Part shown: one piece after another, positions 1 to 32,910 of the stretch
Position numbering within the stretch: position 1 is the first letter of the stretch
How the letters are laid out: each line of letters starts with the position of its first letter
Assembly (NCBI GenBank): GCA_003990765.1
Contig: RBNJ01000204.1
Location: 1 to 36,711 of the forward strand
From: Jimgerdemannia flammicorona
Taxonomy: Eukaryota
Direction of reading: 5' to 3'
DNA: 36,711 nt
Notes under the pieces: generated by a model
Told to the model about the DNA's origin: nothing
Database searches by the model: none
The model's input: the letters and a program-made list of their open reading frames with translations, nothing else
Position numbers and translations under genes: made by a program

Positions 1-99
1 TTTTTAAAAAAAAAATAATATAAAACTTATAATACTTTAGATATATTTATTGTTTACTTAATATATATATATATATATACTATTCATATAATATTATAG

Positions 100-325
100 A
101 GGCATATAAAAAAGAGTATATATAATAATATCTATTAAAAACTTTAGGTAAATATATTTAGATATTATTAGTAATATTAGAGATATTGTTGAATCAAATA
201 TAGTTACTAACTATATTTCAAATTTTACTACAGAGTATAATGAGTAAAATTTCATTTATGATTAATATCTGAATATCTCTCAATGTTATTTCATTTCTTA
301 GCATTACTGAATATTAGATTAATAT
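100..325 (+). pseudogene. hAT-family transposase remnant, left part (intron 148-233)
   Basis: From 234 reads SIMSKISFMINI*ISLNVISFLSITEY*IN, a decayed KISFTTDxWTS...SFLxITAHWID first catalytic-Asp region. It is preceded by a GTAAAT(148)...CTAAC(207)...CAG(233) intron and cut by element C at 326. Confidence 0.75.
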
Positions 326-799
326 TATAATATAATAGATATATATATACTAGTAAAAATATAGTAGATTTCTTTATTTTAAATACTTGATCTTCTTTAA
401 CTCCTTAGAGTCCTCAGGTGCAGGGGTGAGTAAGTTTAAAATATATCTATCTATAGACTTATTAGTTTCTTATCTCTTTACTTAAATTATTTTAATCTCA
501 GATTTATTTACTCTAAATATATACTAGAAATATTTATATAAGTTTACTAGCTATATAGTAGCTAAGTTAAGACTTCTTTTCCTGTAAGTTATTTTATATA
601 GTTGAGAGATCAGTATATTTGTGAAATCTATATAGATGAGAGATCATTATATCTGAGAGATTTATATAACTATACTTTTTATATAATTGTATAAATCATA
701 TAACTGAGAGATTAAGTAACTACTAAACTATAATACTATATTATAATGATCAAATATCTATCCTCTGATTATTATTCCTAATTTAGATTAACTATTACA
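326..799 (-). repeat. 3' LTR of element C
   Basis: Co-linear with 22162-22564 and 32825-32906; termini TATAAT...ATTACA (ancestral TG..CA). Confidence 0.9.
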
Positions 800-802
800 A
801 CT

Positions 803-809
803 CTCTCCT
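803..809 (-). promoter_or_regulatory. Polypurine tract of element C
   Basis: AGGAGAG on the minus strand, followed by AGT and the 3' LTR start TGTAAT. Confidence 0.7.
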
Positions 810-911
810 AAATAAGTAATTTTATCTCTAAATCATCTTATTCAAACTTCTATACTTTGACCAATTATATGTTCTTATACTATATAATCTACTCAATTAT
901 ATTCTCTTAAT
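810..911 (-). pseudogene. C-terminal part of element C accessory ORF3
   Basis: After removing element A and one TSD copy, ...KKYY*|ENIIE*II*YKNI continues in frame from 15395. Confidence 0.55.
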
Positions 912-1390
912 TATAAGAGATTTACTTGTTAGAGTAACCATTATATAGTTCTGGAAGAGTTTTCTGAAAGTTCTGGATATTCTGGAAGACTATTTTCTTT
1001 AGATCAAGATCAATTTCATATAGAGTATATCCTCTATACTTATTGATTTTAAGATCAGATTGATGTCTTAACTAAAGTCCTTTTTCAGACTAGTTCTGAA
1101 TATTCAGAATTTTCATATTTCAGAAAGTTTAAGAAACTAAGACCAGCTTAGTTGAATTGGTATATTACTATAGACAATACCCAATCAGAAAATTTCATGA
1201 TATAGTTAGGAGTAGATTTAACAGAGTATAGATTTACTTAAGAGTAGTTTGTAGATTATTAAATAGATTTATTTGCTATTCATGATATTGCTATATTAAG
1301 AGTAGTTGTATAAAGAGATATTGTGGAGAAGTGTTCAGAAGTTGTATTTAGATTATTCTTGTCTGAGTTTCTGAAATTTGGAGAAGGAGG

Positions 1391-1398
1391 TATTTATA
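1391..1398 (-). promoter_or_regulatory. Putative TATA box of element A LTR
   Basis: TATAAATA on the minus strand followed by pyrimidine-rich CCTCCTTCTCC, ~480 bp from the U5 end. Confidence 0.55.
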
Positions 1399-2119
1399 CT
1401 AATAGAAGGCTATCTGGACTATACTGAATATAGATATAGCACTTAGTGTCTTACTGAATCAAAATGCAGTTACATAATATACATAAGTATAAACTGACAT
1501 ATCAAGAGATCATCTGACTGCTGAGTTAGTTTACAGTTATATCATATAAGGCTAATCTAACTATACTAATAACTACTAAGCTATCTATAGATTTAGATAC
1601 TATCTGGATAGTCTTTAATGATATTACTATCAATGATATTATCTCTGATGAAGTAGTTATCTAGAAAGAGTGGTTCTCAGATTACTTCTCTCTATTTGCT
1701 CAGATAATAATACATCAGAACCTCATCACTATTTTACAGAATAGTATTATCTATCTCATATACTGAGTATGGAGTTAGTGAGTGAAGAAGAGATATATTA
1801 TCTTTACTTTCATCAGATTTGCTGTCTGTATACCTTTTATAGGTTATAGCACTATATGTTGCTGAATTGTAGTAAGCTGATAGCTATTATTTATATCACT
1901 CATACTTGAGTGGTAGAGTTATTGGTTTGATCTTAAGAGTTATCTGGAGATATAAGTTGTGTTCTCTAGTCTCTTCATTATAGTTGAAGTAGTTAGAGAT
2001 GAATATAGATTAGTACTTATATCAGTAATTATTATCCCAATAGATCTCATAGATAGTTATGAACTATTATAAGTTCATCAGCAAAGTTGGTAGGGTGATT
2101 AGGGCTAGCAGAGATCATT

Positions 2120-2720
2120 ATCTTCTGCTTTATTATTATTAAACTAAATTATATTATATATTCTTCATAGTATATCTAACTTAGGGCATTTGTAGGATGT
2201 AGTTATTGAGGTATAGAAAGGTTCTATCTATGGTCTAGATATACTTGATATACTTGTAGTTAAGTTCTTATACTATATTTCTAATTTGGCCATAGGACAG
2301 GATGGTAACCATTTTAGCAGTAGTAACTCAGAGGCAGAGAATAAAGATACTATACTCATAAAAGAATTCTTGGTATTTATGAGTAATGAGTTTCTAGTAT
2401 TGGAATATCTGGGTAATATCTATGTCATAGTAGTGTTCAATCATATCTTCCAGGAGGTGGCCAATCTGATAGTAGCTTGAGATTTGTCTAATTCAGTGGG
2501 TTTTGCTGAGTATGTTCAGGATATTTTATTGGACTTCTACAAAGTAAAGGAGTGCTAAGCTATGGATATTCATAAGGGGCAGAGAAGGTGTGGCTCAGTT
2601 GATAATAGTATTCCAAATGTCAGTACAGATATAGTTATAGATCTCAGTAGTCATATTTGTATATATGTTTAAGAGTTGTGGTTGTTTATTTAGTTTGTTG
2701 TAGTTTTTGTTTTGATACAT
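2120..2720 (-). pseudogene. Accessory ORF inside U3 of the element A 3' LTR (may extend with frameshifts to ~1600)
   Basis: Single frame from ATG 2720/2654: MTTEIYNYICTDIWNTIIN*ATPSLPL...IRQISSYYQIGHLLEDM...THKYQEFFYEY...VTTAKMVTILSYGQI. Several stops differ between the two LTR copies (e.g. TGA vs CAA, implying ancestral CGA). Confidence 0.7.
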
Positions 2721-2921
2721 CTAAGTACTCAGTATATATATTCAGTTCTGATTAGTAAGGTTTTGTTTATGTAAATCTTATATTCTATAACTTCAAGTTG
2801 ACTTAGCTTTATACTCTATGACTTTGATTTAACTCAGCTTTGTAATCTTATATATGATTTCTGAATTCAATCTGAGAGTGATATGTGATTTTAGTAGCTT
2901 AGAGATTGTGCACTTATAACT

Positions 2922-2929
2922 CTCTCCTT
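2922..2929 (-). promoter_or_regulatory. Polypurine tract of element A
   Basis: AAGGAGAG on the minus strand, then AGT, then the 3' LTR. Confidence 0.7.
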
Positions 2930-3369
2930 AGCTTTCAATGTCCTCATTGAGGTCTTCTAATTTTGGTCTAGTGTTGTTATACTATTTAGATGGTCAAAAG
3001 TCTGGTAATATCTATTTTTCTCAAAAAGTGGTATACTTGTAATACAGTTGCCTAATGCATTAGATTCACATGTTAAAGAGTCATGTATTCAATACTGTAT
3101 ACTGGAAGTGATTCTGATATTATTCATTACTGGAGAATTTCCTTTAAGAAATCTTCTTAAATGTTTATATCTTATTTCCTATCAGTAGTATAGAGATAAT
3201 AGACTGGTTTTCAGTTTTGCTATTTTTCTAGAGGGTCAGTATTCTTTTATCTTGTCTTATTGAGTTCTTGATTTCATTCATAATAATTATAAGGATACTT
3301 AATGTTTAGGAGGGATAGTATATGATGTAAACTGATAGATGCTGGGGTGTTCAGTTTCAATTATTTAAA

Positions 3370-3525
3370 GAATTATATTCTTGAACTAGATTAGTAGTAT
3401 TCTAGAGGTTGGTCTTAAGTTTCTATATTGTATCATAGATTGGATAACCTTTCTATTTGACAAGGTACTCTAGATGGTTCTTGTGGCTATATTTATTGAG
3501 GATTTGTTCAACTTCATATTCTTCT
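3370..3525 (-). pseudogene. Chromodomain at the C-terminus of element A integrase
   Basis: DQEEYEVEQILNKYSHKNHLEYLVK*KGYPIYD matches the EYEVExIL...YLVKWKGY chromodomain consensus. Confidence 0.9.
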
Positions 3526-3529
3526 TGGT

Positions 3530-4895
3530 CATTAATAATGATAAGTATAGGTGGTTTTGCAGTTTAGTTCAGGAATAGCTTATCATCATTTTCATTATAA
3601 TACTTGAGATATTAGACATTAAAGACTGGATGAATCTTAATAATATCTAGTAGTATCAATTTATAGGAAGTTAGAGAGACTTGTGTGATGACTTTGAATG
3701 GTCTAATGAATTTGCTGTTCAGCTTTATAGATAATTTATACTTGAGGTTATCAACTTAGTATCCTTAGATATCTAGTAAAACTTTTTCTCTGATATTAAA
3801 AGTTTCTTCTCAGTAGTACTAGTTGATATTCTATGACTATTGTTCTTGAGCTTAAGATAAATTCTTGATTGCAATCTGACTTAAATTATACATTTAGAGT
3901 AAGAATTCTTCAATGGCTTCAACAGTGGAGAGTTCATTGGTAGTTCTGATGAGTATCAGAGGGGTGTTTGGGTTTTGCCCTGTATTGGTAAAGAACAGAG
4001 TCATTTCAAGAGAGGCTTGCTTGCTGTTATTATAGGTAAACTCAACTATAGTAAGGTATTCATATCAATCATCTTGTCTATAGGAAATATAGTTCCTTAA
4101 CATTTGTTCTAAAGTTCAGTTTATTCTTTCAGTTTGACCATCAGTTTCAGGATAAAAGACTATAGATAGTATAAGTTTTATTTCAAGATGGGCATAGAGA
4201 GCTTTCTAAAAATAGCTGGTAAATTTTAGATCTCAGTTACTAATAATGATCTTCAGAAGACCATGATAGCAGAAGATGTTATTAAATAAGAGTATAGTGA
4301 TTTCAGATACTGTTATAGTTGTAGCAGTAGGTATAAAGTAGGCTTGTTTGCTGAGATAGTCTACAAAAACAATAATTGCATCTTTTCCATTCTTAGTTCA
4401 GGGTAGTTATATAATGAAGTCCATAGAGATTTATTCCCAATTAGCAGATGGTACTAGTATAGAGTGGAGTAGACCAGGTTTTGCTAGTGTTGAGAACTTG
4501 TTGTATTGGCAGACATTATAGAAAGTAATGTAAGTTTTTAGCTAATCTGCCATATAGAGCCAATAGAAGTTTCAGAAAATAACTTCATAGTATTTGTCAA
4601 ATCTTAAATATCTAGCTATAGGGGTATTATGATATTCAAATAGGATAGTTCTTTAGAGGTCTCAATTGTTTGGAATATATAATCTGTCCTTATAGTAGAT
4701 AGTATTGTCCTTCAGTTGGTATTGATGATACTAGATATACTTGTCAATATTGTCACTGCTCAGAATTTCTTGGAGTACTTGAGCTTCTTTATCATCAGCA
4801 TATGCTATGATAATTTATTCTATAATAGAGTTGGTAACCAAGGTAAGAGTTTGAATAACTTCTTTGATTGGTGGTCTGGAGATTGTATTGATAAT
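3530..4895 (-). pseudogene. Element A integrase
   Basis: Minus-strand motifs W(E)*ISMDFI, IVFVDYLSK, YPETDGQTER, KFIRPFKV (GPF-like) and IHPVFNV, with many stops. Confidence 0.88.
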
Positions 4896-4919
4896 AATAA
4901 TATATATATATATTTAAAG

Positions 4920-7900
4920 TTATTTGGACTCACTATTTATTACCAGTCTAGTTACATTATCTCCTCCCACTACCCAATCCTCATAGGAGAGCCCCCTCCT
5001 ATATCTTCACACTTAAATACTACTCTACTATCCACTACTCCAACTCTCCCCCCACTCTGTCTACAGATTTTCTCCACCAAGCAATGTCTCTGACCACTCT
5101 ACAGACCCCAACCTAACCACCAGCCTGTCAGAATATCCTCCATCAACTTTTCTCATCTTAACAGCTGTACCCCTAAACTCAAATACCTCTCTTCCTCAAA
5201 AACAAACAATCAGTGACCTGTCAGCCCCACTCAAACAGCTAATACTCAACCTATAGTAAGCCACTCCTTTTCTATTCTCCCTACCAATCTATCTCTCATA
5301 TTCTCTCACCAACCTCTCTCACCATCCCCTCTGCACACAATACCCAATCAATTCCCAACTACTAGCCAAAAATCACTAAGTACCTCACACTCTTCCAGCC
5401 AATGTTCTGGTATCTGTACAAATTCTCCTTTCTGTCCTACATTGTAGTACTTCTTATAGTCAAAACTATCCCCCTCTACAAGATAGCCTGAGTGAAAGTT
5501 GAGCATGACATTCCTCTACAGCATACACTATCAGACTACTCAGTACTTCAGTAGCAGCTATTGTCATACCTCAGCACACCAGGCCTAGACCCTATTCCAG
5601 TCTCACTTCTCTCTGATTCTAGCCAACTATCATCTACTGGGTCATAAATTCTGTCCTAACCCCCTCTGGCACTTGATCCTATTACTAATATTGAAATTAA
5701 TTAGAGAGATATCCCACAACAACACTCTGTCCCATCTCTACATTGCTGGGCCCCAAGGCATCTCTTCTTCATTTCTTCTCCAGTAAATTTCAATGTAGTG
5801 TGCCCCATCTACTACCCCTATCAGAAGTCTTTGTACTGTATGCACTCATTGTTCTGAAGTCTAACTAAGGACAGTAGATCTTCTATAAAGCCTCTTAGTG
5901 AGGGCCTCATCTTCCAGACCTTCTTCATTAGAGGAACCTAATCACCTCCTTGTAGCTCCACAGCTCTCTTCAGCTACCATGCTCTCAGACAGTACAGCCT
6001 CTTCAAAAAGTCAACAAGTCTGAGGCCCCCTCTAGCCACTGGCAAAGACAAAATTTCTCAGCTAATCTGACTCCTTCTCTCAGCCCAGATCTACCCCTTG
6101 GTTAGTTTCAATAGTCTCTTTACCACCCAGACTGGAAAGTCTAGGTAATAAGCCAAATATCACAACTTTAGTAGCCAGTAGATGTTCAAAATTGAAACAT
6201 GCTCTGCCAAAGATAAGTGGTGTCCTCTCCAACTCTATAGAGCCTCTCTCCAAATCACAACTCACTGCTCTCATCAAGGTCTCAGTAAGACTGACCTATA
6301 TACTAATAGATAGATGTTCAAGTAGCACACCATCTCTTCAGTAAGGACAATTGTTCCAATGATATCTCCTCCTACCAAACTATTGCCCAACACTATCATT
6401 TCACACTTATACCAATTGAGTTTAGCCCTAGAGTGAGTCTCATACCACTCTACCATCTCTTTGAGTTCCTTGATATCTGCAATCAATCTCAGGCCAACCA
6501 CTATATTATCTGTAAAGGCTCCAAATTTCCACCCAATTCCAAATACTAAGAGTCCAACTATCTTCTGCTGAATCTTATCCATCAAAGGCTCTAAGGAAAG
6601 AGCATATAGAATAAAGGGCAGTGGGTCTCCCTGAAGGACACTCCTACCCAGGGGAAATACCACCCCTCTATGTCTATTATATATAAGTGTACCTCTACTC
6701 TCTTTCAATAGGCTAACTATCACTACTTGGAACTAGTGAGAGATATCAATCCTATTCAATATCTTCATCAATCAGACCTACCAAATATAGTCATATACCT
6801 TCTTCTAATCTAGAAAAACCAGTTGCCTATCCAGACCACAGGCCCATGCCTCTTTAATAATATCATATATCTAAGCCATGCCATCCCTAATGAGCTGGCC
6901 CCCTACAAAGCCCCACTACTCCTCACCCAAGACTTGCTAAGCCACTTTCTGCAGCCTTGCTACCACTATCTTAGTAATCAACTTTCTGTCCATATCCAGA
7001 AGTATGATCAGCTACCAGTTCTTCCAGTTCTCTCTTCTGCTCTTATTCTTATAAATTAGTATTACTAGCTTTAGATTCTGCTCACCCACTCATCTTCCTA
7101 ACTATAGTATTAAGTCACAAAGTACCATCAGCTCTCCTAATACTCTAGGGACTCCCACTATCTTCTTCCAAAGTCTCAAGACAGATCATCCTCCCCTGGC
7201 ACTATATCTAGTATAGTTGCAGCAAGAATCTGACAAATCTCCTTCTCCTATACAGACAATGTCAAGCTGCCCAGCCCTTTTACTTATAGTGGGTGCCAAT
7301 CTTCTAAAGTCTGATCAATGATGACAGCATCAGCCCCACCCTCCTCTTCACTCTACAGACCACTCCACCTCTCCTTTAATAATTTAAGAATGTCTTGTAT
7401 ACTATACACCAGCTGTCTATCAGAATCTAGTACCCCCTCCCACCTCTGCTTTACTCTCCTCATCTGAAGAGCTCTCATGAGATACTTAGAGGGTCTTTTC
7501 CCTTCTTCTAGCCCCTGCCAATATAACTATACTGCCAAACTCTGTACCTGTACCTTCTTCTTCTCCCACAATATCTGTTGTAACTTCTCAACTTCCATTT
7601 TTACCTGCAACAGTCTCCAGTCCTCTACTCCCTCCAGGGTCAACAGATCAGCCCAATCTTCCAGAAGCCTAGCCAATCTAGTAGAAGCCCACATCACCCT
7701 CTTCCTCCTCCACCTTCCAGCCATCTTGCCAGCCTTGCTCCAGTAGACCCTGGTGGCCTCTTTTATTCTTATCTACTGGACACCAACTGGGGCTCCTTTC
7801 TATATCCAACCTTCCACCCTCTGCTGAATGTCCTCAGCCCACTTATTCCATAGCACCTTATCATCTAACAAAGAGGAATTGAGGTGTCAATATTCAGGCC

Positions 7901-8623
7901 CATTCCCACTCTTCCCAAAATATCTCTGTCTTAGTAGCCCCCAATGATCAGACCATAGACACCACTCAGCCTCCAGTAACTTCCAAATACCCAAGCCCTA
8001 GCAGTTTGCTATCAGAATCTAGTCAATTCTTATCCCTAGACTGCTTGCCCAGTGTATGTATACTCTCCTATTTATCTCAAAACTCCCTACTAGCATCCAT
8101 TAGAGTACTTAGCCTTTCCACTTTCTCCTATACCTTCAGATCTTCACTCCTATCCTCAGCCCCTCATTCTCTATCAGTTCTATTCACCAGTATATCTCTG
8201 ACTATATTAAAGTCTCCTTCAAGCATATCCACTCCTATCTCTATAAGAGTCCCACTTTTCTAGAGACCTTTCACCCAATCTACATGCTCACTCCTCACAG
8301 CAGGGCAGTAGTAAGAATCCACTAACCAACTTTCAACCTATTTATATTCACTCTCCCCAAACCAGTCTGTCTCTCCAGCTTCTTACATCTCATATCTCTC
8401 CTCTGTCTCTCTAGATCAGAATCTCAACCTTGCTCTTCCAAACTACCTCACCTCCCTATTCCTTTGTCTATTTTAGTCTATCCAAATAATTCTTACATCT
8501 GATATCCTGCAAAAGAAAGAGATCAGCCTCCAATCTCTTCAGCTAAGCAAAAATGTTTCAATACTAAAATGAACTCCATAACCCATTCACATTCAAAGAA
8601 AAAATATTAGTTATACTGTTCAT
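4920..8623 (-). pseudogene. LINE ORF2 (AP endonuclease + reverse transcriptase + C-terminal Zn region)
   Basis: MNSITNIFSLNVNGL start, GDFN, SDH, D*KKVYD, QGDPLPFILYALSLEPL, FTDN (ex FADD), RGGLRL, EHWLEEC; ends WVVGGDNVTRLVINSESK*. Confidence 0.9.
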
Positions 8624-8710
8624 AAGAAATATTATAAGATAGCAAGTGTATCCTCTATTACTCCATATTCATCTCCTCCTAAGCCAAGTCTAGATTGCAT
8701 TCAGCAGTCA

Positions 8711-10620
8711 CTACCTCCTCTTTGATCCTCTTAGCCTCCAATCCAACCAGTAGTTTAGCAAGTTCCCCATTCTCTTTCTTCTTGAAATCCTCATAATACT
8801 CCAGGCAGACCTCCTGCCAGAGCTGCAATCCATGATGCTCCACTCAACAGAAGGTGGCCTACTCACCAGCAGCAACTGCCAGCTCAGTCTCCTTCTCCTT
8901 ATTAACCTCATATCTTTCCTCTAGGAAAACTACAAGAACCTCTGCCTTCAGTGCCTCTATCACTCTATTATTATGCAGAATCTATGCCCAATGCTCTTCA
9001 CTCATCACTCTCAGGTCCACCTCTCCCAACTCCTCTGCTGCAAAGTTATTTATCATCTGATATATTCATAGTAGATTTCTTACCTCCTTCCTTCCTGAAG
9101 TTACTGGCCTTCCTCTATTCAGTATTGAGGTATCAATCTCTGCACTCATAGTCTTATCCCACTCCTCCTCTTGAATGTCTACTAGTTCATTCTTACCAGC
9201 TACCACTATCTGTCCCCCCTTTACTACCTCAAGAACTTCAAAGTATACTTACTAGGTTCTCTATATAGACACATCCTCTGCCACCTAGCTCCTTGAAGCC
9301 AGACCTCATCTAATAAGAGAAGTAGAAGTTGAGGAGTCCTTCCAGACCTCAAATATACCATCTGTATATGAGTCATTATCAGTCACCCCCTTGTCCACTT
9401 CCAGTCCCTTTTCTATATTCTTTCCATCTTCACTAGCTTAGACACTCACTTTGACTCTCCCCAAGATCTCAATTCCACCAGTATCCTTCTTCACTCTACT
9501 CTTCAGATTTGCCAACAGCTCTCTCTATCTCTTATATTCTTGGGACCTTTCTCACAGCTTCTTATCTATATAGATCTGCTTTCTATCCACTATCTCTAAA
9601 TGTATCAACTATATATATGCCTCTAAGCCTTTGTCCTCCACTCTACTATACCACTCAGCCCCTCTAGTTTCTCCAATAAATTCTCTTTCTTCTTCTCACT
9701 TCCCTTTATCCTCATTATCTTATATAAGAATGTCCCCCATACTATTACCAATAGCCAGTTCCCGACCTTCCCAGTAGCTTCCCTTTCTGCTAACCAAATC
9801 CAGATATCAATATCCCCAGTTCTGAATGAGGTCCCTTCCTAGACCTGGAACCCAACATCAACTACCTCTTCATACTTAGTCATGACTTCCTCAACTCTTC
9901 TCCTTATCTCCACAGTAATCACTATAGATACTCCTTTTACCAGAAATTGCACCACTCTAGGGTCCTACCTCAAGTAGCATGCCATTGGAATATACATCTC
10001 TCTGACAGTCAGCCTAGCCTTCAGTATATCCTCTAATAGCCCAGCTTTCTCAAAGCCCACCTCTACTCCTTCTAATCTCTTCAGAAACTTTACAGATGCT
10101 ACTTCAGCTATCTGCTTAGTAATCAGCCCCAATACTATTTTTGCTGTTACTGCTAAACCCCTGAAGTATAAAGTAACTATAAACTCTGAGATTGACTTCT
10201 TGAGTAATGGGGTCACCACTAGGTCTGTTATACCATCTATCAGATCCCCCATCCATCTAAGCCCCATCCTCTCAGCCCTGTTATCAGCAGTTACATCTGG
10301 ATTTTTTTCAGATTACCAGTCACCACCCTATCAGCAGTTATACTCCCAGCCACTACTCTACCAGCCCTTCTACCTGATACTCCCAAGGGAGCCCCTCCTG
10401 GCTCTCCAGCAGCAGCTGTCTCCTTTACTGTCTCCTGGCCCTTTCTCAGCCAGCTCTCTAGCCTATTTATTAGCTAACCCCTCTTCATCATATCAGCAAA
10501 GTTTGCTCTCTCTGTCTCCTATCCTCCAACCCTGCTTCCCCCCCTTCTATATCCTTCTATCAGTAGACCCCTCATGTTTCCCCCCAAGCTAGGGCCCCTT
10601 CTCATATATTGCCAGTTGAA
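8711..10620 (-). pseudogene. LINE ORF1 remnant
   Basis: Located upstream of ORF2; ORF-track fragments 9965-10267 and 8711-8911; RRM-like EVMTKYEEVVDVGF...FRTGDIDIWI. Boundaries approximate. Confidence 0.55.
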
Positions 10621-10705
10621 TATGCTTGGGCCACCCTGCTCAGTATATATCTTGGAATACTCATCAGTTGCTATGTTACTAGTCTCTTTTTTTCAAAAAT
10701 GATAT

Positions 10706-12000
10706 TGTGAGTGTCTTCAAAGATTGTGTAACCTGAATGTTATCAGAGAAAGATGATAATAATATTTTCCTTATCAGAGTGATACTGGATTTTATAGTCA
10801 AAGTTAGTGAGAACTTTTAACTATCTGGCTTACTTTTAAAAAAGAATAGTCTGGATCTTGATATTAACTAATGATTTGTGGTCTATTAAAATAGTGAAGT
10901 ATACTTCTTCAAGATAGAGTTACTATTTAATCATATAATGGCTAGCATTTCCTTCTTATGAATTATATAGTTGATTTCTACATTATTGAATTTTTGAGAA
11001 TAGTAGGCCACAGAGTGTCCTTCTTACATAAGTACTGCTCTAAGAGCTAGGTCAGAGACATTAGTAGTACATAACTTCATATAGTAGGGCAGGATTTATC
11101 ACTTGAAGTACTGGAGTGATTATTAAGACATCCTTTAGTGCTTAAAAGGCTATATCTTATTTATATTTCCAATTTACAAGATTGTTGAAGTCTTTTTCTT
11201 ATTTTGTAGTTCAGGGCTGTTCTTCTTTCTTGCTATACTTGATTATTTGGATAAGAGCAGTAGCAATCTTCATCTTTTAGCTTCTTAGGTTTGGGCCAAT
11301 TCTTGATTGTAGAGATTTTGCTAGAGTCTACTTTGATTTTATTGGGAGTAATAATGTGTCTAAGGAATTGAATTTCCTTCAGAAGGAATTCATATTTGCT
11401 GAGTTTTGCAAAGAGTCAGTTTTCTCAAAGCTTTAGTAGTACTAGTTCAAGATGTTCAAGATGTTTCTCTAGGGTTTTACTGAAGACCAGGATGTCATCA
11501 ATATAGATAATAACAAATTTATCTAGATATAAGTATAGAATGATATTCATCAGTATCTGGAAGATTGCAGGAGTATTAGTTAAGCCAAAGAACATAACCA
11601 AGAACTCAAAATATCTATAGTGAGTTTAGAAGACTATCTTGTAAATGTCTTCTTCCTTTATGGCAATTTGTTAGTAACTATTTCACAGGTCAAAAGAGCT
11701 TATAAATTGTGAATTAGTAAGTCTATTAAATATTTCATTGATTCAGGGTAGTGAGTAACAGTTCTTGATAGTCTGTTCATTGAGATCATAGTAATCAATA
11801 CACATTTGCAGGTCTTCTCCTTTCTTGACAATAAAGAAGACTGGTGCTCCATAGGGTGATACACTGGGTTTGATGAATCCTTGCTCTAGGAGTTCATCAA
11901 TCTCTTTCTTGAGTATATCAATTTCTCTCAGAGATATATAGTAGATTGACTTGAATACTGACTTAGCATCTGGGATAGTCTTGATGGTATAGTCTACTAC
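10706..12000 (-). pseudogene. Element A reverse transcriptase and RNase H
   Basis: [51 protein letters not shown]. Confidence 0.9.
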
Positions 12001-12299
12001 TCATTTAGATGGTAGGTCTTTTAGAAGTTTCTTTGGGAATATGTCTTAGAATTTCTGAAGTAGAGGTCTGACATGGCTGTTAACTTTGGAAAAATCTTCT
12101 TTGAGGTTCTCAGGTTCTCCTTTGGATGGTCAGATAGAGATAGCAAAGAGAGAGCATTTCTTGGCCAATTTCTTGAGCTGTAGTTTATTGATATAGGTGA
12201 TCTTTGATTCAGATTCACTAGAATTGAGTGGGTCTTTTTTATCTTACAGTTTGAAATTATGACATCCTTTCTTGATCAGAGAATAGTTTATCTAATCAA

Positions 12300-12600
12300 T
12301 CATAAGGTTCTCTTATTTTAACCATGAGGTCACAAGAATAATTTTGTTATCAGGAAGTAGTATGATCTAGAGTGTAATATATACTCAGTAGTCACTAATT
12401 CAGAAGGATAGATTGTAGACTTCCTTACTAATAATATGGGAGATTCTATTAGCTATAGTAACTGCTTGAGTCTGTTGTACTGGAGAGGTCAAGACCTTGA
12501 GTCTGTTGGCTGTTTCTTTATTGATAAAGTTGCCTAAGGCACTACTGTCTATTATAATCTTGACAGATGCTCAGTTGACAAAAGCTTGGAGTATAAGCAG
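12300..12600 (-). pseudogene. Element A aspartic protease
   Basis: VKIIIDSSALGNFI (DSG-type active site) and a downstream IIL..SW motif. Confidence 0.7.
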
Positions 12601-12699
12601 TTTGTCTGATCCAATGGTAGTAATTTTAGTTATAAGAGCTTTCCTTTTGTTAGTTCTCCTTTGGGCCAGTTTATTGATACAAGAGAAGCAATTATTGAT

Positions 12700-13700
12700 C
12701 ATTTGAGAAGAGTACATTCTGATATCATAGAGGCATCAGCTACTCAGTACAAATCTATCTTCAATTTTCTTATAGAATTATTCTTTCTCATTCATAGTGA
12801 ATCGGACTGAGGTCTTGTTTGATGAGTCAAATCCTTTGAATCCTTGGATGGTGAGCAGTAGTTCAGGGACTTCCTTGACTATCAGAGTTGATTCAATTTT
12901 CTCAAATAGGATCTGGGCAATACAGAAACTGATGGAGATCTTAAAGAGTATCTAACTATGGTTTCAGATAAGGGCAATAATTTTGTCTATATAATTCTCA
13001 TCAATAACTTCTCCTTCAACTGAGAGTCCTTTCAGTACTAGGCTGCTGCAACAGTATATTCTTCCAATATATTCTTCCAGGATTTGAATGCTGATTCTTA
13101 TATAGATTTTCTTGACTTCTCAGTTGGAAACTATAGCTTCTTTGGCTATATATAGATCATATCTGACTGCTTTTTGACTTCCTTTAATTAGAGCCTTGGC
13201 AGTTGATCTTAACTTAGTAAAGTTTACTATTTTGGTGATCAGATTGTTAACAGAGAGTTTTTCTTGCTTCTTCTTTAAGAATATGGTAGGTCTTGCAATT
13301 CTGAAAGTAATAATATAAGGCAGTCTTGGTCTTAGTATAGTGAAAGTCAGTAGAATTGAGCTACTTGACTATAGAGGCTTAGGCTTCATGAGAAACTAAA
13401 ACTAGAAAGATAGCTACTGGTTGTCCTAGGTCACTCAGGTTTGTGGAGCTGACAAAACTCTTATAGAAAAGAGTAAAGAAGACTTCTATAAGACCTTCTT
13501 CATCTTGACTTATGAGTATAGAGTAAGAAGTTTGATATATAGGATTTTATCTATCTGCTAGTTTAATTGAAGTACTTCTTTTTATAGATAAAGTCTATCC
13601 CACTTATTATAGATATAAAGATCAAATTGTTCTTATATATCAAATTTAATTCTCTCCAGATTATCAGATAGTTTAGGATAAATTCCAGTTCAGAGGTTGG
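12700..13700 (-). pseudogene. Element A gag remnant
   Basis: Lies between PBS and protease, with a decayed zinc-knuckle-like region near 12690-12745. Boundaries approximate. Confidence 0.55.
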
Positions 13701-13781
13701 GCTTTATACCAACTTGTAGAAATTCTTATAGAGGTTTGTAGCAGAGTGAGGAAGCATCTTGAAGTAGAATTGGATTGTAAA

Positions 13782-13793
13782 CTACTACTACCA
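13782..13793 (-). promoter_or_regulatory. Primer-binding site of element A (tRNA-iMet-like)
   Basis: TGGTAGTAGTAG 3 nt inside the 5' LTR; TGGTAG(C>T)AG is compatible with an initiator-Met tRNA 3' end. Confidence 0.65.
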
Positions 13794-13796
13794 AGT

Positions 13797-15394
13797 TATA
13801 AGAGGGTTACTTGTTAGAGTAACCATTATATAGTTCTGGAAGGGTTTTCTAAAAGTTCTAGATATTCTGAACTATACTGAATATAGATATAGTACTTAGT
13901 GCCTTGCTGAGTTGAAATTTAGTCATATAGTATAAGTGTGAACTAATATATCAAGAGATCATCTGACTGCTGAGTCAGTTTATAGCTATGTTATATAAGG
14001 CTAATCTAACTATACTAATGACTGCTAAGCTATCTATAGATTTAGATACTATCTGGATAGTCTTCAATAATACCATTATTAATAATATTATCTCTAATAA
14101 AGTAGTTACCAGAAAGAGTAGTTCTCAGATTACTTTTCTTTGTTCACTCAGATAATAATATATCAGAACCTCATCACTGTTCTACAGAATAGCATCATCT
14201 ATCTTATATGCTAGATATAGAGTTGGTGGGCAAAGGAGGGATATATTATCTTCACTTTCATCAGATTTGCTATCTGTGTATCTTCTATAGGTTACAGTAC
14301 TATATATTGCTAAATTATAGTAAGCTGACAGCTATTGTTCATATTACTCATACTTAGGTGGTAAAGTTGTCTAGAGGTATAGGTTGTATTCTCCAGTCTC
14401 TTCATTGAAGTTGAAGTAGTTGGGGGGTAAATGCAGATTGGTACTCATACCAGTGATCATTATTCCAATAAATCTCATAAATAGTTATGAACTATTGTAA
14501 GTTTATTAGCAAAGTTAGTAGAGTGATTAGAGCTGGCAGAAATTCTTAGCTGGAGGTCATATCAGTGTTGAAGGGATCATTATCTTCTACTTTATTATTA
14601 TCAAACTAGATTATATTATAGATATCCTTTATAGCATATCTAACTTGGAGCATTTGCATGATATAGTTATTGAGATGTAGGAAGGTTCTGTCTGTAGTCT
14701 GGACATACTCAATATACTTATGATTGAGTTCTTATACCATATTGTTGATTTGACTATAAGATAGAGTAATAATTATTTCAGTAGTAGTAACTCAAAGATA
14801 GAGAATAAAGGTGCTATACTCATAAAAGAGTTCTTTATATTTGTGGATAATAAGTTTCAAGTGTTAGGATATCTGAATAATATCTATGACATAGTAGTGT
14901 TCAACTATATCTTTCAGAAGACAGCTGATCTAGTAGTAGCTTGAGATTTGTCTAATTCAGTGAGCTTCACTGAGTATGTTCAGAGTATTCTATCAGGCAT
15001 CTATGAAGTAGAGGGGTACTAAGCTATAGATATTCATAAGAGGTAAGAGAGGTGTGGCTTGGTTGATAATAATATTTCAAATATCAGCACAGATACAGTT
15101 GTAGATCTTAGTGGTCATGTTTATATATATGTTCAAGAGTTATAGTTGTTTGTTTGGTTTATTGTAGTTCTTGTTTTGATATATCTGAGTATTCAATATA
15201 TATATATATATATATATTCAGTCTTGATTGGTAAGGTTCTATTTGTGTAAATCTTATATTTCATAACTTCAAGTTGACTCAGCTTTATACTCTGTGACTT
15301 TGGTTTAACTCAGCTTTGTGATTTTGCATATGATTTCTGGATTTGATCTGAGAGTGATGTATGATTTCAGTGGCTTGGAGGTTGTATACTTATA
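13797..15394 (-). repeat. 5' LTR of element A (~1.6 kb, internal deletion)
   Basis: Matches 912-2918 but lacks the segment equivalent to ~987-1418. Confidence 0.92.
14600..15118 (-). pseudogene. Second copy of the U3 accessory ORF in the element A 5' LTR
   Basis: MTTKIYNCICADI*NIIINQATP... co-linear with the 2120-2720 copy. Confidence 0.65.
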
Positions 15395-15601
15395 TTAATA
15401 GTATTTTTTCACCTGCTAGAAATCTCCTAAGACTACTTCTCAGAAATGGGTCAGGGCTTGCTTATTATCTTTAAATAGTTTATAGATCTACTTGGCTATA
15501 CTGATCTGAATATAAGATATCTGGCACTCTGTGATCTATTCTTCTTTGATTATATCCTTCTTATTTAGCAATTTCTCTAACTTAAAGTATTCTTAAAACT
15601 C
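15395..15601 (-). pseudogene. Element C accessory ORF3 (after integrase), split by element A
   Basis: EF*EYFKLEKLLNKKDII...ISIAK*IYKLFKDNKQALTHF*EVVLGDF*QVKKYY*. Confidence 0.6.
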
Positions 15602-16989: not shown

Positions 16990-19450
16990 TTGAGATTTCT
17001 GTAAGATATATCTATATTAGTATTATATCTTCCTGAGTAGTACATAATAGTTGTATTATAGACTTACAGTTTTATAATCTATTTAACAAATATTTCTTTA
17101 GATTGACTGATGATCAATAACTAGATAAAGGCTGAATCATTAGTCAGAATAGTGAAGTATCTTTCAACAAAGTAGTAGTAAAACTTTCTACAGCCCAGAT
17201 GACTATAAGATACTCCAGCTTATAGAATTTATATTCTCTTTCTCTTTTGTAGTTTCTTAGCTAAGATATATAATTATATATTCAATCTTATTCTTCTTTT
17301 ATATAAAAACTACTCTTAGTCTAATTGAGCTTACATTTATCTATAAGATAAACTCTTGAAGCCAGTCAGATCTTCTCAAGATAGATATCTGAGAGACCTT
17401 GAGATGTTTGAATACTTGTTATTACCTATCAATCTATTAGAACTTGGTATCTTTCTTAAATAATTCATAGATAGGATCTATAATACTTTGATAAATCTTA
17501 ATTGAGTCTATATAGGTTCTATTCTAATTGATAAATATCTAAGATAGGAGATCTTGATTTTACTGAACTTATACTTCTTTAGCTTAATAAACAGGTCATA
17601 ATCTCTCAGTTTTTGCAGAATTTGATAAATATAGTTCAGATATTCCTTAGTTATCTTGCTGTAGATAACTATATCATCTATATCAGCTCCTTTCTCTGCT
17701 ACCTTACTGGTTACAAGGTTTGGTAGGCAACCTTCCAAGTCCCCTTTCCCCTAATATTACCCCCTCTACCTCGGGTTGGTTTACTATGCCTGCAGGGGCA
17801 TGGTGGGAGGAGGGCAATGGTGATGAGTTGCCCCTTTATCGGTGTCAGATCGGTGCTTCCTCTACTTTTTTGTGAATTTTGGTGCCTTCAGCTGTGTCTA
17901 GGGTATACCCGTTTTGGTGCAGCACCTTCTTCCTTTTGCTATCGCCAACAAGGAGTTGTCTCAGTGTGTCTCGGGCTACGTAGGGAGTCGGCCGACCTTG
18001 GGCATCAAGTGCTCAGTGTAGGTTACCTGCAGGTCCTCGGTACCTGTGGTGGGGCCCTCTGGCTTTGGTGAGCTTCCTGGCAAGCGTGGTTCTGGCGTAG
18101 GTGACTGCTTTTCGGATGTTGTCGGGATGGGAGGGGAGATGGCTGTCACAGATAGACAGAAGGGCGATTATGGTGAACCAGTAGGGTACCAGGCTGGGGG
18201 CGGTCGTCGGGGCTGAGGCAGGTGCTGCTTCAGTGGGGCCTTTTGATTGGTGCAGCATAGTTAGGTGGTAGGTGTCACTATTGGCTTCTTTTGGCAGTCA
18301 GCGGGGTTGGGCCCCAGTCGTCAGGGGGGGTTGGGAGGCCCGAGGCTACCCATTTCAGGCATCTTGGCTACACTCAACTGGAACCGGGAGCTGACATAGC
18401 AATGTGATCGAGGCCCACAGGCTTGAGTAGTGGGGTATTGGGGGCTTCCTCCCGCCTCACGTGTAAGTCCTTTACTCACCTCAACTGGGAGAACCAGGCC
18501 CTACCCACCATGTTGTGCTTTGATGAGGGTTTTTTATTTACCTATCATTCTCTTTGGGGTGGTAGGGACTATTCTATTCGGCTTAGACATGGTCTTGTAC
18601 ATATGTTGGGTTCTCAGGTATGCACTTTCAGTCGTTGGCATATGGTTGGGTTTCCCCTGGTGGTAGGGAGAGCATGGTGCACAGAATGAGGTGCGGGCTT
18701 ATTAGCCCTGCTGCACCTGACATGGTCGAGCTGCTGGACAATAGCTAGCCTAGGTTAATGGGGGGGCAGTGCTTGGTGGGTAGTGGGGGAGAGTTTTGGC
18801 CTATATAGTCTAGGTTCCCTTCCAATAAAAATCCATAGGACATGAGTCCGTAAAACAAAAACAAAAAAAACTATATCATCTATATAGATCATTATCTATT
18901 TTTTCATATTTTCTTGGAAAATCTTATTTATTATTTTTTAAAAACTTACTAGAGTATTATATATACTAAATGGTATTTGCAAGTAGACATAGGTCTATAT
19001 GGGGTAATTAATGCTAACTTTTTACTGACTTCTCTGATAAGGCCAATTTGATAGAATTCTGAGTATAAATTCAAGGTAGTGTAGTATTATACTCTATCTC
19101 TTAGTACATATCACCAGAATATCACTAATGAGAAGCAGTAATTAGTAATTCTTCTTAGTAACTTCATTCAGTTTTCTATAGTCTGTATAGAGTCTTGAGG
19201 TAAATTCTTCTAGTTTGCTTTTTTTCTTTAGAGCTAGTACAATTTATAAGAACTAGAGACTAATGGCCTCCTTAATGATATCAGTTTCTTCTATCTACTT
19301 GATTTTCTCTCTAAGCTATTTAAAATATACTAGTGGGATTGGTCTTGCCCTTTGATAGATTGGCTTAGTATCTTTTATATCTATATTATAATAATAGTAT
19401 AGTATCTTTCTTTTGATATCCTTGAAATCAGTGATAAGAATATTCTTAAA
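16990..19450 (-). pseudogene. Element C RT and RNase H, interrupted by retroposon E at the YIDD motif
   Basis: IYIDDIVIYSK duplicated by the TSD, LFIKLKKYKF, WAVESFYYYF, ILTND; N-terminal RT region 18886-19450. Confidence 0.85.
17684..18870 (+). mobile_element. Young GC-rich poly(A) retroposon E (5'-truncated L1/Tx1-like LINE derivative or non-autonomous element)
   Basis: Perfect 15-bp TSD CTATATCATCTATAT (17669-17683, 18871-18885); AATAAA 18824-18829; A-rich tail 18852-18870; about 30 CpG; 3' end WWVVGE resembles the LINE B ORF2 end DWVVGG. Confidence 0.85.
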
Positions 19451-20329
19451 TTCATGCAGTAGCTTCTTGAGTTCCTTTTTAAATAGAAATTTATTTCCAA
19501 TAGTTTAACTATACTTGTCTGTAATTTTCTCCTTCTTGTGGTTCAATTCAGTAATCTTGATACTAATAAAAACTCCTCTTTTTATAGATCCAAATTCTCT
19601 CCTTTCTTTTTCCATTTTCTCTAACTTCTTGACTTCTGAAATTCTGAGTTACAGTATCAGAAAGATCAGTATTTATGTAAGTTAATCTTTCTTCTTAACT
19701 ATAAACAGAATTGTAGAGTTGTAGTTCTTGACAATGAGTAAGATTTCTTTAATATAATCAGAATCAATAACTTCTTCTTCAATTAAAATTTCACTCTTAG
19801 CTAGACTACTTCTTATCTTGAGTATTCTAATATAGCTCTTAAGAATAGTCATCTCTAGTCTAGTTATAAGTAGATCTATTATCTGAAATTTGAGAATTAT
19901 CTCCTCAACTATAGTAATATCTATTTCAGCAATATTTTCTGACTTATATTCTAGTAGAACTATATTAAGATAAATTCTCTAAATCTTAACCTTTATTTCT
20001 TCTTCATCATCACTATTCTCTAAGAGTACTAGTGATTCATTCTTCTGGTCTTCTTTTTCTTACTGCTTCTGTCTTCTTTTCTTCTCTTTATAATGAATCT
20101 TATAGATCTTAGTAATATATTGATAGTACTTATTTATATACTTTATATAGTATATTCAAATTTCATAAGAATATACTTCTTGAGAGACATATTCTTTAGC
20201 AATCTTCTTATATCAGTCTTTTTCACTGATCTATTCAACCTTCTTTTTCTTTTGAGTAGTTACTATATAGACTTCTTTTTGCTTGCTGTCTTCTTTCTCT
20301 ATCTTAGAGTATTTTTTTTATTAATATTG

Positions 20330-20680
20330 ATGAAAATTCATATCTTTTGTTCTTAGTAAACAATCTGTATCTTTTGGAGATTTATGTTGATTATAGTCTT
20401 AGCCTTATAAAGCCACTGATTACTAATGAGAATATTATAATTAATAGTATTTATAATGATCACATCCACTAGAATGGTCACTTCTCTGAACTTAATAAAG
20501 ATATCTTAAATTCTTTCTAGAGAGATGGTATCTGCTGTGATGAATACCAATTTCATAGCTTCTTCAATTTTCCAATCTAGACAGTCTATAGCTTTCTTAC
20601 TGAGGAGGTATCCTCTTACTCCTATATCAATGATAACTTCAAAGATCCTATTCTCAATCTGACAGATAGCATAGGCAGAG
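20330..20680 (-). pseudogene. Element C aspartic protease
   Basis: FEVIIDIGVRGYLL (ex DTG) and IILISNQWL. Confidence 0.7.
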
Positions 20681-21199
20681 ATCTTGTAGTTATCTTTTTC
20701 ACTTTCTTCACCTGAATTCTTCTGTATATTATTGATCTCAACTATCTTTTACTCTTAATTCTTGACTGTTTCTGTAAGTCCTAGTCTCATTTATTATCTG
20801 AAGATGGGAATTTCTGCCAACTATCTAAAGGTTATATTGACTTTTTACTAGCTGAGATTCTTGAAGATATTATACTTAAAAATCTTACTCTTTTGTAGCT
20901 TCTTCTCCTTTTCTCCTTCACTGACAGAAGTATTGCCTCAGATGATACATATCTTTAACTACTTATTCAAGCTCTATATTTTAATCTATTTCCTCAGCTA
21001 TAGTTTTAATTTCTATAGATACTTCTATCTGTTCTTCTACAGACTATTCTACTGCTTTCTTCTTAGATCTTTCTAGTGGCCTCTTGTAGGGTTTCTGGCA
21101 GATATTTCTCTTGGAGATAAGGACTAAATAGACTTTTTATTCTTTTATTTTCTCTGAATCTCCAATCTCTTTAAAGATGATAATATTGGTCTGTTTATA

Positions 21200-22090
21200 G
21201 ATTTTAATAGTATTACTTAGCTGAATCTTATACTTAATCTTACTTATATATTCATAAAAGTAGTTACCTTCTTCTCTATATATATAGCAGATTTTTCTCT
21301 TCTTATTTATGGTAATAGCAAACTTTTGAACTAGGCAATAATCTCTTTCTCTGATTTCCTTTACTATATCTCTCAGATAAGTAGTTATTTCAGCAAACCT
21401 CTTAGCAAGTTTCTCCATAAGATAACTATTTCTCTACTACTCTATAGCCTTTGGCTGAGGTGTGTTTTAATTGATTATAGTTATAGAAATTACACTAGTC
21501 ATCTTAAGTACTTTGATTCTGACTTCTGTAACTCTCTTCATTATATAGTCTTGAGGGTATCTAGATATCTAATATTACTGAGCATAAGTTATCTTCTGTA
21601 CTAAGTCTAGGACTATTGATATTAATCCTATCTCTAGGTAAATACTTTTTATAAAGATTGTTTTAACAACTTAATCTTTAATAGTATTAGTATAATTAGT
21701 CAAGATTATCTGATAGCAGATTCAGTATAGAAGGTATTTGGATCTTTATTTATTTCTTAATAAATACTATTGAGTTAGTTCTTCAAAATCTGCTTTATTT
21801 TATCTATATAGTAAGTAGTTTACAACCAGGTCTTCTGTACTATTAATATTGTAGTATCATTATTTTTAGCATAAGTTACTACTATAAATATAGCTCTCAC
21901 TGATCCTCAGAGACTAAATAATATTAAAGTTACTTATTATTATACTGATAGAGTTTTGACAGTAGTATATTACTTGAAATTATTAATAAAGATAATGATT
22001 GATTCATTAGAGATATATTTATAAAATATTAGTAGTCTTATATCTATCTTGTCTAAATGTCTTGTTTTGATTTGAGTATATGTTTAGATA
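21200..22090 (-). pseudogene. Element C gag remnant with CCHC knuckle
   Basis: ICYIYREEGNYFYEY = decayed Cx2Cx4Hx4C (ORF 21137-21418); lies after the PBS. Confidence 0.7.
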
Positions 22091-22161: not shown

Positions 22162-22564
22162 TATAATAGTAGATATATACTAACAAAAGTGCAGTAGATT
22201 TTTTTATCTTAAATACTTGATCTTCTTTAACTTCTCGGAGTCCTCAGGTACAGAGGTAGATGAGTTTGAAGTATATCTGCCTACAGGTTTACTAGTTCTT
22301 TATCTCTTTACTTAAACTATTTTGATCTCAGATTTATTTACTTTAGATACTAGAGATATTTATATAAGTTTACTAGCTATATAGTAGCTAAGTTAAGACT
22401 TCTTTTCCTATAAGTTATTTTATATAGTTGAGAGATTGATATATCTGTAAAATCTGTACAAATGGGAGATCATTATATCTGAGAGATTTATATAGCTATA
22501 CTTTTATATAATTATACAAATTATATAACTGAGAGATTAAGTGACTGCTAAACTATAATACTAT
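22162..22564 (-). repeat. 5' LTR of element C, part 1 (split by D)
   Basis: Co-linear with 326-~740. Confidence 0.88.
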
Positions 22565-23892
22565 TATGATATGAACTTCCAGTATAGCATAGTTACTTAT
22601 GTCTACTACACTTATAATTAGCCAGAATACCAAATCAGGGTTATTTATCTATATTCTGAGGACACACCTATATCTGGTAGATATACTTATATTCTGTAGA
22701 TATACTCATATCCTGTAGACACACTCATATCCTATAGATATACTTATGTTCTATAGACATACTTAAATATTACTAGAGATGATAAATCTATAATTATTCA
22801 GATAGCAACTAGATAGTAACCATAATATATAAAATACCCCAGAGATAAGAGTGAATAAACCTCAGTCCAAATTGAAGTACAAATTAAAGAAGTTTTTAAA
22901 GATTGAGCATTAGTCTCCTTTTTCTATTTTGGTCTATTTTTTGATAGAAAGAACAAGTCTATTTTTAGTTTACTTGCTAGATAAGCCTGCCAAAGTTCAA
23001 GTAAAGAACTTTGCCACTATTTAAGTAGTCTGTCACTTAAGAAATAAGCTATCATTTTTAAGAAATTTGCTATCTTATTACAAAGCCAGTCTGTTGACAC
23101 AACTTTGCAGTGAACTTATTTATATAAATGAAGCCAGTCTCAATATAACTTTGCCAAGAACCTGTATTCCCAGAGAGCTCTTAAGGAATCTTGCTACAAG
23201 CCAGCCTCTTGATGTAACTTTATAGTAGAGCTAGTCTATGATATAACCCTATGCAAATGAAACTAGTCTTTAACATAACTTACTGAGAATCCATATTATC
23301 TAAGTTATCTGAATATTCACTATCTGAGTTATTTATCTATTCCCAGTAAGCCCAATTTAGAAGAATCCATACTATCCACTATTCTCAAAAGAGCTAATTC
23401 AGAAAAATCTGCAATATCTAAGTTATTTAAGTTATTTGAATTATCTGTACTATCTAAGTTATTATTCAAGAAGTCTGCTAATTTAGAATCTGCACCAAAT
23501 CAAGTTATCTATCAAATTATATATTTTTGGAGATTATTGCACTATATAGAGATTACCTATTACTTAAGAAGGAAAACTACTAAATTACTAGACTACTTCA
23601 TATAAGAAAACCCATTACACTATATAGAGATTATTATGCAGAAATCACCTATCACTTAAGAAAAAAACTGCTAAATTACCAGTCTGCCACATACACAAAT
23701 TACTACTATACTCAAGAACCTATCCTAATAAGAATATTACTTATTATATCTAGATTGATTATTATATCTCTAAATACTAATAAGAAAACTCAGAATATTT
23801 TGCTACTTTTTAACAAAGTAACTAGGAGTTCAAGCCAAACTACATCAACCCCCATCCTTGTAATTTACCTCTATTGAGTCAGGTATATTATA
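22565..23892 (+). repeat. 5' LTR of element D
   Basis: Co-linear with 31447-32820; TATATAAAA ~22826, AATAAA ~22854; internal tandem sub-repeats. Confidence 0.92.
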
Positions 23893-23894
23893 TT

Positions 23895-23911
23895 TGGAGG
23901 CTCAACTAAGA
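23895..23911 (+). promoter_or_regulatory. Primer-binding site of element D (TGGAGG type; tRNA-Gln-like, Thr/Cys possible)
   Basis: TGGAGGCTCAACTAAGA 2 nt after the 5' LTR. Confidence 0.7.
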
Positions 23912-31396: not shown

Positions 31397-31434
31397 ATAA
31401 TAACTAAAGAATAGTCTGAGGTAGACTATTCTTC

Positions 31435-31442: not shown

Positions 31443-31446
31443 CTAA

Positions 31447-32906: not shown

Positions 32907-32910
32907 ATAT

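Follow-up and report, generated by a model that had tools for sequence, protein, structure and literature searches.

Can the long terminal repeat (LTR) of a fungal retrotransposon hold the remains of a gene? The question is raised by a 36,711-nucleotide stretch of Jimgerdemannia flammicorona DNA (GenBank assembly GCA_003990765.1, contig RBNJ01000204.1, positions 1 to 36,711, forward strand), which we call the window. The window is AT-rich and filled with nested, degraded retroelements. One of them, at 912-15394 on the minus strand, is a dead, dUTPase-containing retrotransposon of the Ty3/chromovirus type. An earlier note on this DNA had proposed that a protein-coding gene is embedded in the U3 region of its LTR. 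We found that both LTRs contain a stretch that does look like the relic of a coding sequence, more so than chance would produce. What survives of the proposal is this plus-strand coding relic within the LTR; the gene is not intact, has no recoverable start codon and runs antisense to the element.

A shared open frame in the two LTRs

The LTR is present as copy A (912-2918, minus strand), which is the 3' LTR, and copy B (13797-15394, minus strand), which is the 5' LTR. The relic consists of two coding-like blocks that lie in one plus-strand frame. In copy A, block 1 occupies 1518-1862 and has 115 codons with 5 stops. None of these stops is left after reconciliation, by which C was chosen over T and G over A wherever the LTR copies differ. 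Block 1 of copy B, at about 13967-14310, is shifted by a 1-nt deletion. Block 2 of copy A runs along the plus strand from 2103 to 2771, with a TAA stop next, at 2772, and its counterpart in copy B (14531-15247, plus strand) has 239 codons with 6 stops, or 3 after reconciliation. Together the blocks amount to roughly 340 codons, split by a 240-nt plus-strand spacer (1863-2102) that is rich in stops (7-8 in 80 codons). The spacer is bounded by GTAAGC (1872-1877) and TAG (2100-2102); with these bounds included its length is 231 nt, so that the frame is kept, and one may speculate that it was an intron. Of the coding range claimed earlier, 1600-2720, the parts within the two blocks stand, and the part at 1863-2102 is not coding-like.

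The frame is locally broken in block 2 of copy A (about 2112-2157) by an A-specific 34+2-bp deletion, and downstream of it an 87-codon open reading frame (ORF) at 2217-2477 remains open. From there to the end of the block, the plus frame has only 4 stops in 185 codons in copy A (2217-2771) and 5 in 189 in copy B (14681-15247), compared with 9-23 in the other five frames. This bears out the claim that about 200 codons are open in both LTRs. Reconciliation leaves 2 stops in 2217-2771. Even before it, the stop density of the plus frame is 2.2-2.6%, whereas the pol relics of the same element have 3.4-5.7% (25 stops in 732 codons and 27 in 475). A complete open frame with a start codon was not found, as each copy retains 4-6 stops, 3 of them shared.

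Codon periodicity beyond chance

Codon-position bias, which the earlier note had suggested looking for, is present in both LTR copies of the window. The chi-squared statistic for base by codon position in block 2 is 27.5 in copy A and 26.8 in copy B, values that 0 of 500 shuffles reach. The same statistic gives 24.6 for the reverse transcriptase (RT) relic of the element and 31.3 for its dUTPase relic. Against a more demanding null, a second-order Markov model trained on the LTR itself and run for 2000 simulations, the maximum chi-squared was reached by 3 simulations for copy A and by none for copy B.

Because transitions cannot turn a purine into a pyrimidine, we also scored the frame by purine and pyrimidine only (RY scoring). 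The signal remained. The RY chi-squared for block 2 is 14.8 in copy A (reached by 1 of 2000 shuffles) and 23.8 in copy B (0 of 2000), and for block 1 it is 12.3 (4 of 2000); in the spacer it drops to 0.7. The lag-3 autocorrelation of the block is the same as for RT, without any one dominant repeat lag. Tandem repeats were considered as a source of the periodicity and rejected, since none explains the signal. As a control we used the LTRs of a neighbouring element (22566-32820), which show no codon periodicity (chi-squared 2.7-9.4 with four letters; RY chi-squared 0.0 and 5.6).

Mutation of the two copies

How much can the differences between the LTR copies say about the gene? The copies align over 1413-2918 and 13866-15394 with 79.6% identity, with an extra piece to the left at 911-984 and 13796-13869. 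They differ by 237 transitions and only 8 transversions, mostly at CpA/TpG: the next base is A in 57 of the 89 C/T differences, and the preceding base is T in 86 of the 148 G/A differences. This pattern is like that of repeat-induced point mutation (RIP). The classical RIP indices are borderline, at 1.10-1.14 for TpA/ApT and 1.03-1.08 for (CpA+TpG)/(ApC+GpT).

Since the LTRs were identical at integration, all differences between the copies post-date the death of the element and hold no information on selection on the gene. Moreover, because nearly all of these differences are transitions, every stop in the plus frame can post-date integration. The earlier note had taken stops that differ between copies and reconcile to sense codons as evidence for the gene. 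This argument does not carry over, because transitions are enough to make every TAA, TAG or TGA out of CAA, CAG, CGA or TGG, and reconcilable stops thus single out no frame. Indeed, differing stop pairs occur in all six frames (20, 26, 28, 22, 40 and 20 in 1500-2800).

Which strand carried the frame

A frame and its in-phase complement show periodicity alike, and the strand therefore has to be decided by other measures. In block 2 the plus frame has 4-5 raw stops and 2 reconciled ones, whereas the in-phase minus frame has 9-11 and 5-6. In block 1 the reconciled counts are 0 and 7. We also counted YRR codons (Y, pyrimidine; R, purine), a class that comprises the stops plus Q, W and CGR codons and is unaltered by transitions. 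Their share is 5.4-5.9% in the plus frame and 10-12% in the in-phase minus frame. The real RT relic in the window has nearly the same six-frame profile, with 4.2% in the sense frame and 10.4% in the in-phase antisense frame. Finally, the sole relative found outside the window, described below, is an ORF call in the plus frame. If the stretch is coding at all, the plus strand is therefore clearly favoured. With gag-pol on the minus strand, this makes the relic antisense to gag-pol.

The earlier note had compared the proposed gene to sag and nef, which requires the sense strand. The analogy fails here, since the best frame is on the plus strand and gag-pol is on the minus, and reconciliation still leaves 5-7 stops in the in-phase minus frame. 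The layout that it described, from LTR start through ORF to TATA box, likewise requires a plus-strand reading of the LTR and is backwards for a minus-strand element.

A single relative outside the window

An exhaustive HMMER search of 1.84 billion representative proteins with the plus-frame translation, stops read as X, returned a single match, P0003 (E 2.7e-12, 56% identity). P0003 is an unnamed protein of 82 aa from a 605-bp contig and forms a single-member cluster. It matches 2499-2669 of block 2 on the plus strand and evidently represents the same LTR in a less mutated state. P0003 is open in the plus frame for 82 codons, with Q at the TAA at 2556 that both window copies share and W or Q at three single-copy stops.

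No relatives of P0003 of near or greater length were found, and scanning the ORF alignment against metagenome and viral contigs confirmed no locus. A scan of metagenomes with pol gave 80 related loci (28-54% identity). The LTR or its plus frame was present in 0 of these 80, where tblastn and blastn gave only (TA)n matches and E values of 0.12 or worse. When the LTR was compared by tblastx with the remaining window, no match was better than E 0.15, and the matches at that level lay in a different frame. Structure-based searches added little: the ESM Atlas scores of 0.82 for the 87-aa ORF came at low recognition and are noise, and AlphaFold2 with a 3-row alignment gave an unusable model (mean predicted local distance difference test score, pLDDT, 40.7). 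Pfam, PDB, HMMER and metagenome scans thus assign the relic to no protein family.

Anatomy of the element and its LTR

The orientation of the element follows from its coding relics and priming sites. We translated 1-14000 of the window in six frames with stops as X and scanned the translations against Pfam, deriving domain coordinates from the residue numbers of the matches. All retroelement domains of the studied element lie on the minus strand. They comprise relics of dUTPase (12820-13197, E 1.6e-14), RVT_1 (11362-11826, E 5.5e-35), RNase H (10931-11068, E 5.9e-7), the integrase zinc finger (4497-4664, E 3.4e-4) and SH3_Tf2-1 (3597-3731, E 1.7e-8, 34.9 bits with a cut-off of 30). A weak chromodomain relic (3372-3518, E 2.1e-3) scores 18.4 bits, under its 25.1-bit cut-off, and lies in the expected place after SH3_Tf2-1. 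A protease-like DSSA stretch within 10931-13197, also on the minus strand, was read from the translation and has no Pfam match. The order of RT, RNase H and integrase on one strand is that of Ty3/gypsy elements, broken by a nested insertion, and the protease-like motif and RT come downstream of the dUTPase. A pol search for the family gave generic Ty3 matches only (27-49% identity), and the closest pol proteins that it found are 30-48% identical.

The polypurine tract (PPT) AAGGAGAGAG (2921-2930, minus strand) is directly upstream of the 3' LTR, and the primer-binding site (PBS) TGGTAGTAGTAG (13782-13793, minus strand) begins 3 nt past the end of the 5' LTR. The gag-pol domains, PBS and PPT all fit the minus strand, which makes copy B the 5' LTR and copy A the 3' LTR. 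In the minus-strand reading, the LTR termini are TATAAG...CTTATA, and the element is flanked by a target-site duplication ATTAA, at 15395-15399 on its 5' side and at 907-911 on its 3' side, where it matches the 5 nt at the other outer LTR end. From the PBS to the dUTPase domain there are only ~600 nt (12820-13795, minus strand), so gag would be very short, at ~200 codons. A candidate mutated zinc knuckle, seen in the translation and not matched by Pfam, stands directly before the dUTPase.

The LTR had been described as 2 kb long. Its length is 1598 bp, and copy A reaches 2007 bp only through a secondary insertion of ~428 bp (985-1412) that copy B lacks. In copy B the LTR flanks of this insertion share ~4 nt (13866-13869), an overlap suggestive of a short target duplication. 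The core that spans the two blocks, 1518-2771, measures 1254 bp, and the LTR without it 344 bp. In the orientation of the element, the core lies ~147-1400 nt from the U3 edge of the 1598-nt LTR, ahead of its last ~200 nt, a position compatible with U3. The promoter, R and U5 of an LTR would normally occupy that last part, and ~344 bp is an ordinary size for fungal Ty3 LTRs.

Imperfect inverted repeats of ~190 bp inside the LTR flank the core (1413-1601 and 2724-2903; 13866-14059 and 15190-15379 in copy B). Their score is 68.5, compared with a maximum of 61.5 in 300 shuffles. These repeats hint that the core may be an inserted unit. They also raised the idea of a nested transposon of the Tc1/mariner type, which we rejected, as no transposase domain was found and the frame has no Pfam match at E up to 10. 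The inverted repeats include a 31-nt unit present 2.3 times (2778-2848), and TATA-like motifs within them, mirrored, face outward at either end.

What had been taken for a TATA box at the end of the gene is a (TA)n microsatellite whose length differs between the copies, with 9 nt in copy A (2733-2741) and (AT)11, 22 nt, in copy B (15196-15217). In the orientation of the element, ~180 nt separate it from the U3 edge, and its direction is outward. The opposite orientation is taken by a near-identical motif, ACTGAATATAGATATA (13876-13891), which lies ~95 nt before the U5 end, a position at which a sense promoter would be expected.

Other elements in the window

The nested insertion that separates RNase H from integrase (~4750-10900) has a GC content of 0.40-0.45 and an extreme C>G skew of about -0.5, as if G-to-A changes had hit one strand only. 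It contains a weak RVT_1 match on the minus strand (6277-6732, E 0.0014) and strong periodicity at 8400-9400, and we found no LTRs for it.

The neighbouring element that served as the periodicity control is a second LTR element, on the plus strand, with 1.33-kb LTRs at 22566-23892 and 31477-32820 that are 83% identical. Its RT is far downstream (28683-29258), as in the Ty1/copia order. It sits in a copy of a repeat (22162-22564 and 32853-32907), of which an uninterrupted copy with 85-87% identity is present at 331-800. The repeat at 331-800 may be an LTR of a third element, a Ty3-like fragment at 18800-21700 on the minus strand with an RVP_2 protease (E 0.0023), a dUTPase (E 3.5e-8) and the start of an RT (YIDDI motif). 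The order in this fragment is protease, then dUTPase; in the studied element the dUTPase precedes the protease-like motif. Because this order differs, there are two dUTPase-bearing families in one window.

A GC-rich island (0.49) at 17500-18800 stands among the AT-rich repeats and contains several ORFs, on both strands, that overlap and are 60-114 aa long. Pfam gave no match for the one of 114 aa. A tandem duplication of ~490 bp with 83% identity (33536-34374) lies in the most AT-rich part of the window (GC 0.16-0.18).

Discussion

How could a coding sequence have come to lie antisense within an LTR? The history that we propose, and to which we give about an even chance, is that a passenger or accessory ORF was inserted antisense into U3, was thereby carried in both LTRs, and is now a pseudogene. 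A foreign or accessory coding unit would have entered the U3 of an ancestral short LTR, and at the next transposition reverse transcription would have carried it into both LTRs, since the U3 of the 3' LTR templates both and a unit inserted there reaches both. That a U3 insert is copied in this way is well established for retroviruses, and double-copy vectors rely on it. The unit would have been open, or nearly so, when the present copy integrated, and RIP-like C-to-T and G-to-A transitions would later have ruined it along with gag-pol. We infer that the relic was once a working gene, and it presumably had its own rightward promoter. The claim that such a gene is duplicated at each transposition and persists in solo LTRs follows from LTR copying itself. 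In a stronger version, which we think rather unlikely, the element would belong to a fungal chromovirus lineage with a genuine antisense LTR gene, probably containing an intron and driven by its own promoter. Speculatively, an intron antisense to the element would survive retrotransposition.

Was there a coding sequence at all? A number of observations weigh against one. The paucity of stops taken alone is weak (P=0.016 in copy A and 0.13 in copy B, against the second-order Markov null). Both LTR copies go back to a single ancestral sequence and are not independent witnesses, and the whole case rests on one element plus a single fragment from outside. The frame gets 4-10 bits only from an RY-codon model with the purine-rich pol as its training set, an unremarkable score given that the best frame in the window has a median of 4.2 and a 90th percentile of 16.4, and the model scores the plus and in-phase minus frames alike. 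With E up to 10 allowed, neither copy had a Pfam match, nor did P0003 or the in-phase minus frame; PDB searches by sequence and by profile gave no match below E 0.9, and besides P0003 no homologue of any length was found among the 1.84 billion representatives. P0003 itself may be a mere ORF call on a 605-bp contig, where by our rough estimate an 82-codon ORF is not rare: it starts 6 codons past the shared TGA at 2478, which may thus be ancestral, and its M stands opposite GTG in both copies. The final ~15 codons of block 2 cross the length-variable (TA)n run. These points could be read to mean that the periodicity and the open frame arose by chance from the composition of an AT-rich, transition-saturated LTR, with no gene involved. 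We consider this unlikely, because the periodicity is level with that of genuine RT and dUTPase relics, is seldom or never reached in shuffles and Markov simulations, does not appear in the window's other LTR pair and persists on reduction to purines and pyrimidines. In addition, two separate blocks share one frame, and the outside ORF call is in that frame too.

If coding sequence was present, was it ever functional in the LTR, and on which strand? Further points against a once-working gene are that no in-frame ATG can be recovered before 2562 of copy A, the sole possible mutated starts being ATA codons at 2156, 2172, 2241, 2250 and 2292, and that three stops, at 2214, 2478 and 2556 in copy A coordinates, are common to both copies when the indel state of copy B is used. 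A fragment of a host gene or transposable element that was dead on arrival in a founder LTR, never functional there and with its codon periodicity fading, would account for these features. It would also account for the stop-rich 240-nt stretch between the blocks, and the ~190-bp imperfect inverted repeats are such as an inserted unit might have. Yet the plus frame has no higher a stop density than the pol relics, and these were necessarily intact at integration. The parent gene was not found in 1.84 billion proteins, though the search did find a less mutated LTR copy at 56% identity, and neither a transposase nor any other Pfam domain was detected at E up to 10. We thus regard a fragment dead on arrival as doubtful. 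A sense-strand U3 ORF of the sag or nef kind, read from the minus strand in phase with the plus frame, seems improbable to us. The in-phase minus frame is the second most open, its 185-189 codons containing 9-11 raw and 5-6 reconciled stops; by codon position, its base composition resembles that of the genes of the element; its score under the pol-trained model is like that of the plus frame; and TGA/CAA pairs of the kind quoted in the earlier note occur in it, at 2529 and 2595. But its 7 reconciled stops in block 1, where the plus frame has 0, its YRR share, which is like that of the antisense shadow of real genes, the failure to match Pfam at E up to 10 and the plus-frame call of P0003 all argue against it.

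Why would an antisense gene in an LTR matter? Where LTR retrotransposons have extra genes, these are known from the internal region; genes in U3 are known from a few retroviruses. An antisense gene in the LTR of a fungal Ty3 element, if true, would join the U3 location with extra-gene cargo. Each insertion would then deliver two copies of the gene and each solo LTR would retain one, so that the LTR itself would be a vehicle for the spread of genes and U3 a natural "double-copy" cargo site. Even as a passenger, the relic would document the capture of a gene into an LTR. The present case is a single degraded element. It also carries a methodological lesson: the reconciliation of stops between RIP-mutated copies is uninformative by itself, and transition-proof measures such as RY periodicity and YRR codon counts do discriminate between frames.

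How does the relic compare with known systems? Among fungal chromoviruses, dUTPase-containing elements include PosPlaTy3 of Postia placenta, Phanerochaete elements and Tmt1 of Tuber (PMC2864245). The studied element is like these in having a dUTPase, whose position is variable among them; they have a chromodomain after integrase, where the studied element has its weak candidate. The passages of that article on these elements describe neither 1.6-kb LTRs nor ORFs inside LTRs (PMC2864245). A figure legend there lists an 'add. ORF' of unknown function, its location not stated (PMC2864245). A search for terms in the review PMC7264820 turned up nothing on LTR-located ORFs, and in an open-access literature library the phrases that we searched for brought up no fungal Ty3 element described as having an ORF in its LTR.

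In plants, the Ty3 elements Grande, RIRE2 and Retand are described as having antisense additional ORFs (aORFs) between pol and the 3' LTR, many of them with a TRP28 domain and shared by most copies of a family (PMC11963269). Our relic is likewise antisense to gag-pol, on the 3' side of pol and of unassigned function. Unlike the aORFs as described there, it is wholly inside the LTR, starting 147 nt from the U3 edge (the LTR boundary is at 2918 and the PPT at 2921-2930), has no Pfam domain and is known from one element and one fragment. The same article mentions the antisense retroviral genes HBZ of human T-cell leukaemia virus type 1 (HTLV-1) and ASP of human immunodeficiency virus type 1 (HIV-1) (PMC11963269). 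The relic resembles HBZ and ASP as an antisense coding sequence tied to an LTR, which would imply antisense promoter activity. HBZ and ASP are driven from the 3' LTR, with coding regions in the internal genome. The coding region of the relic, unlike theirs, is within the LTR.

Parallels in location come from retroviruses. The sag gene of mouse mammary tumour virus (MMTV) and the nef gene of HIV and simian immunodeficiency virus (SIV) lie in or overlap U3; both are sense-strand genes expressed from viral mRNAs. The relic differs from them in that it is antisense to gag-pol, belongs to a fungal-type Ty3/chromovirus element and is a pseudogene without a known family. What it shares with sag and nef is its place inside the LTR, by which it is duplicated at reverse transcription and present at both ends of the element.

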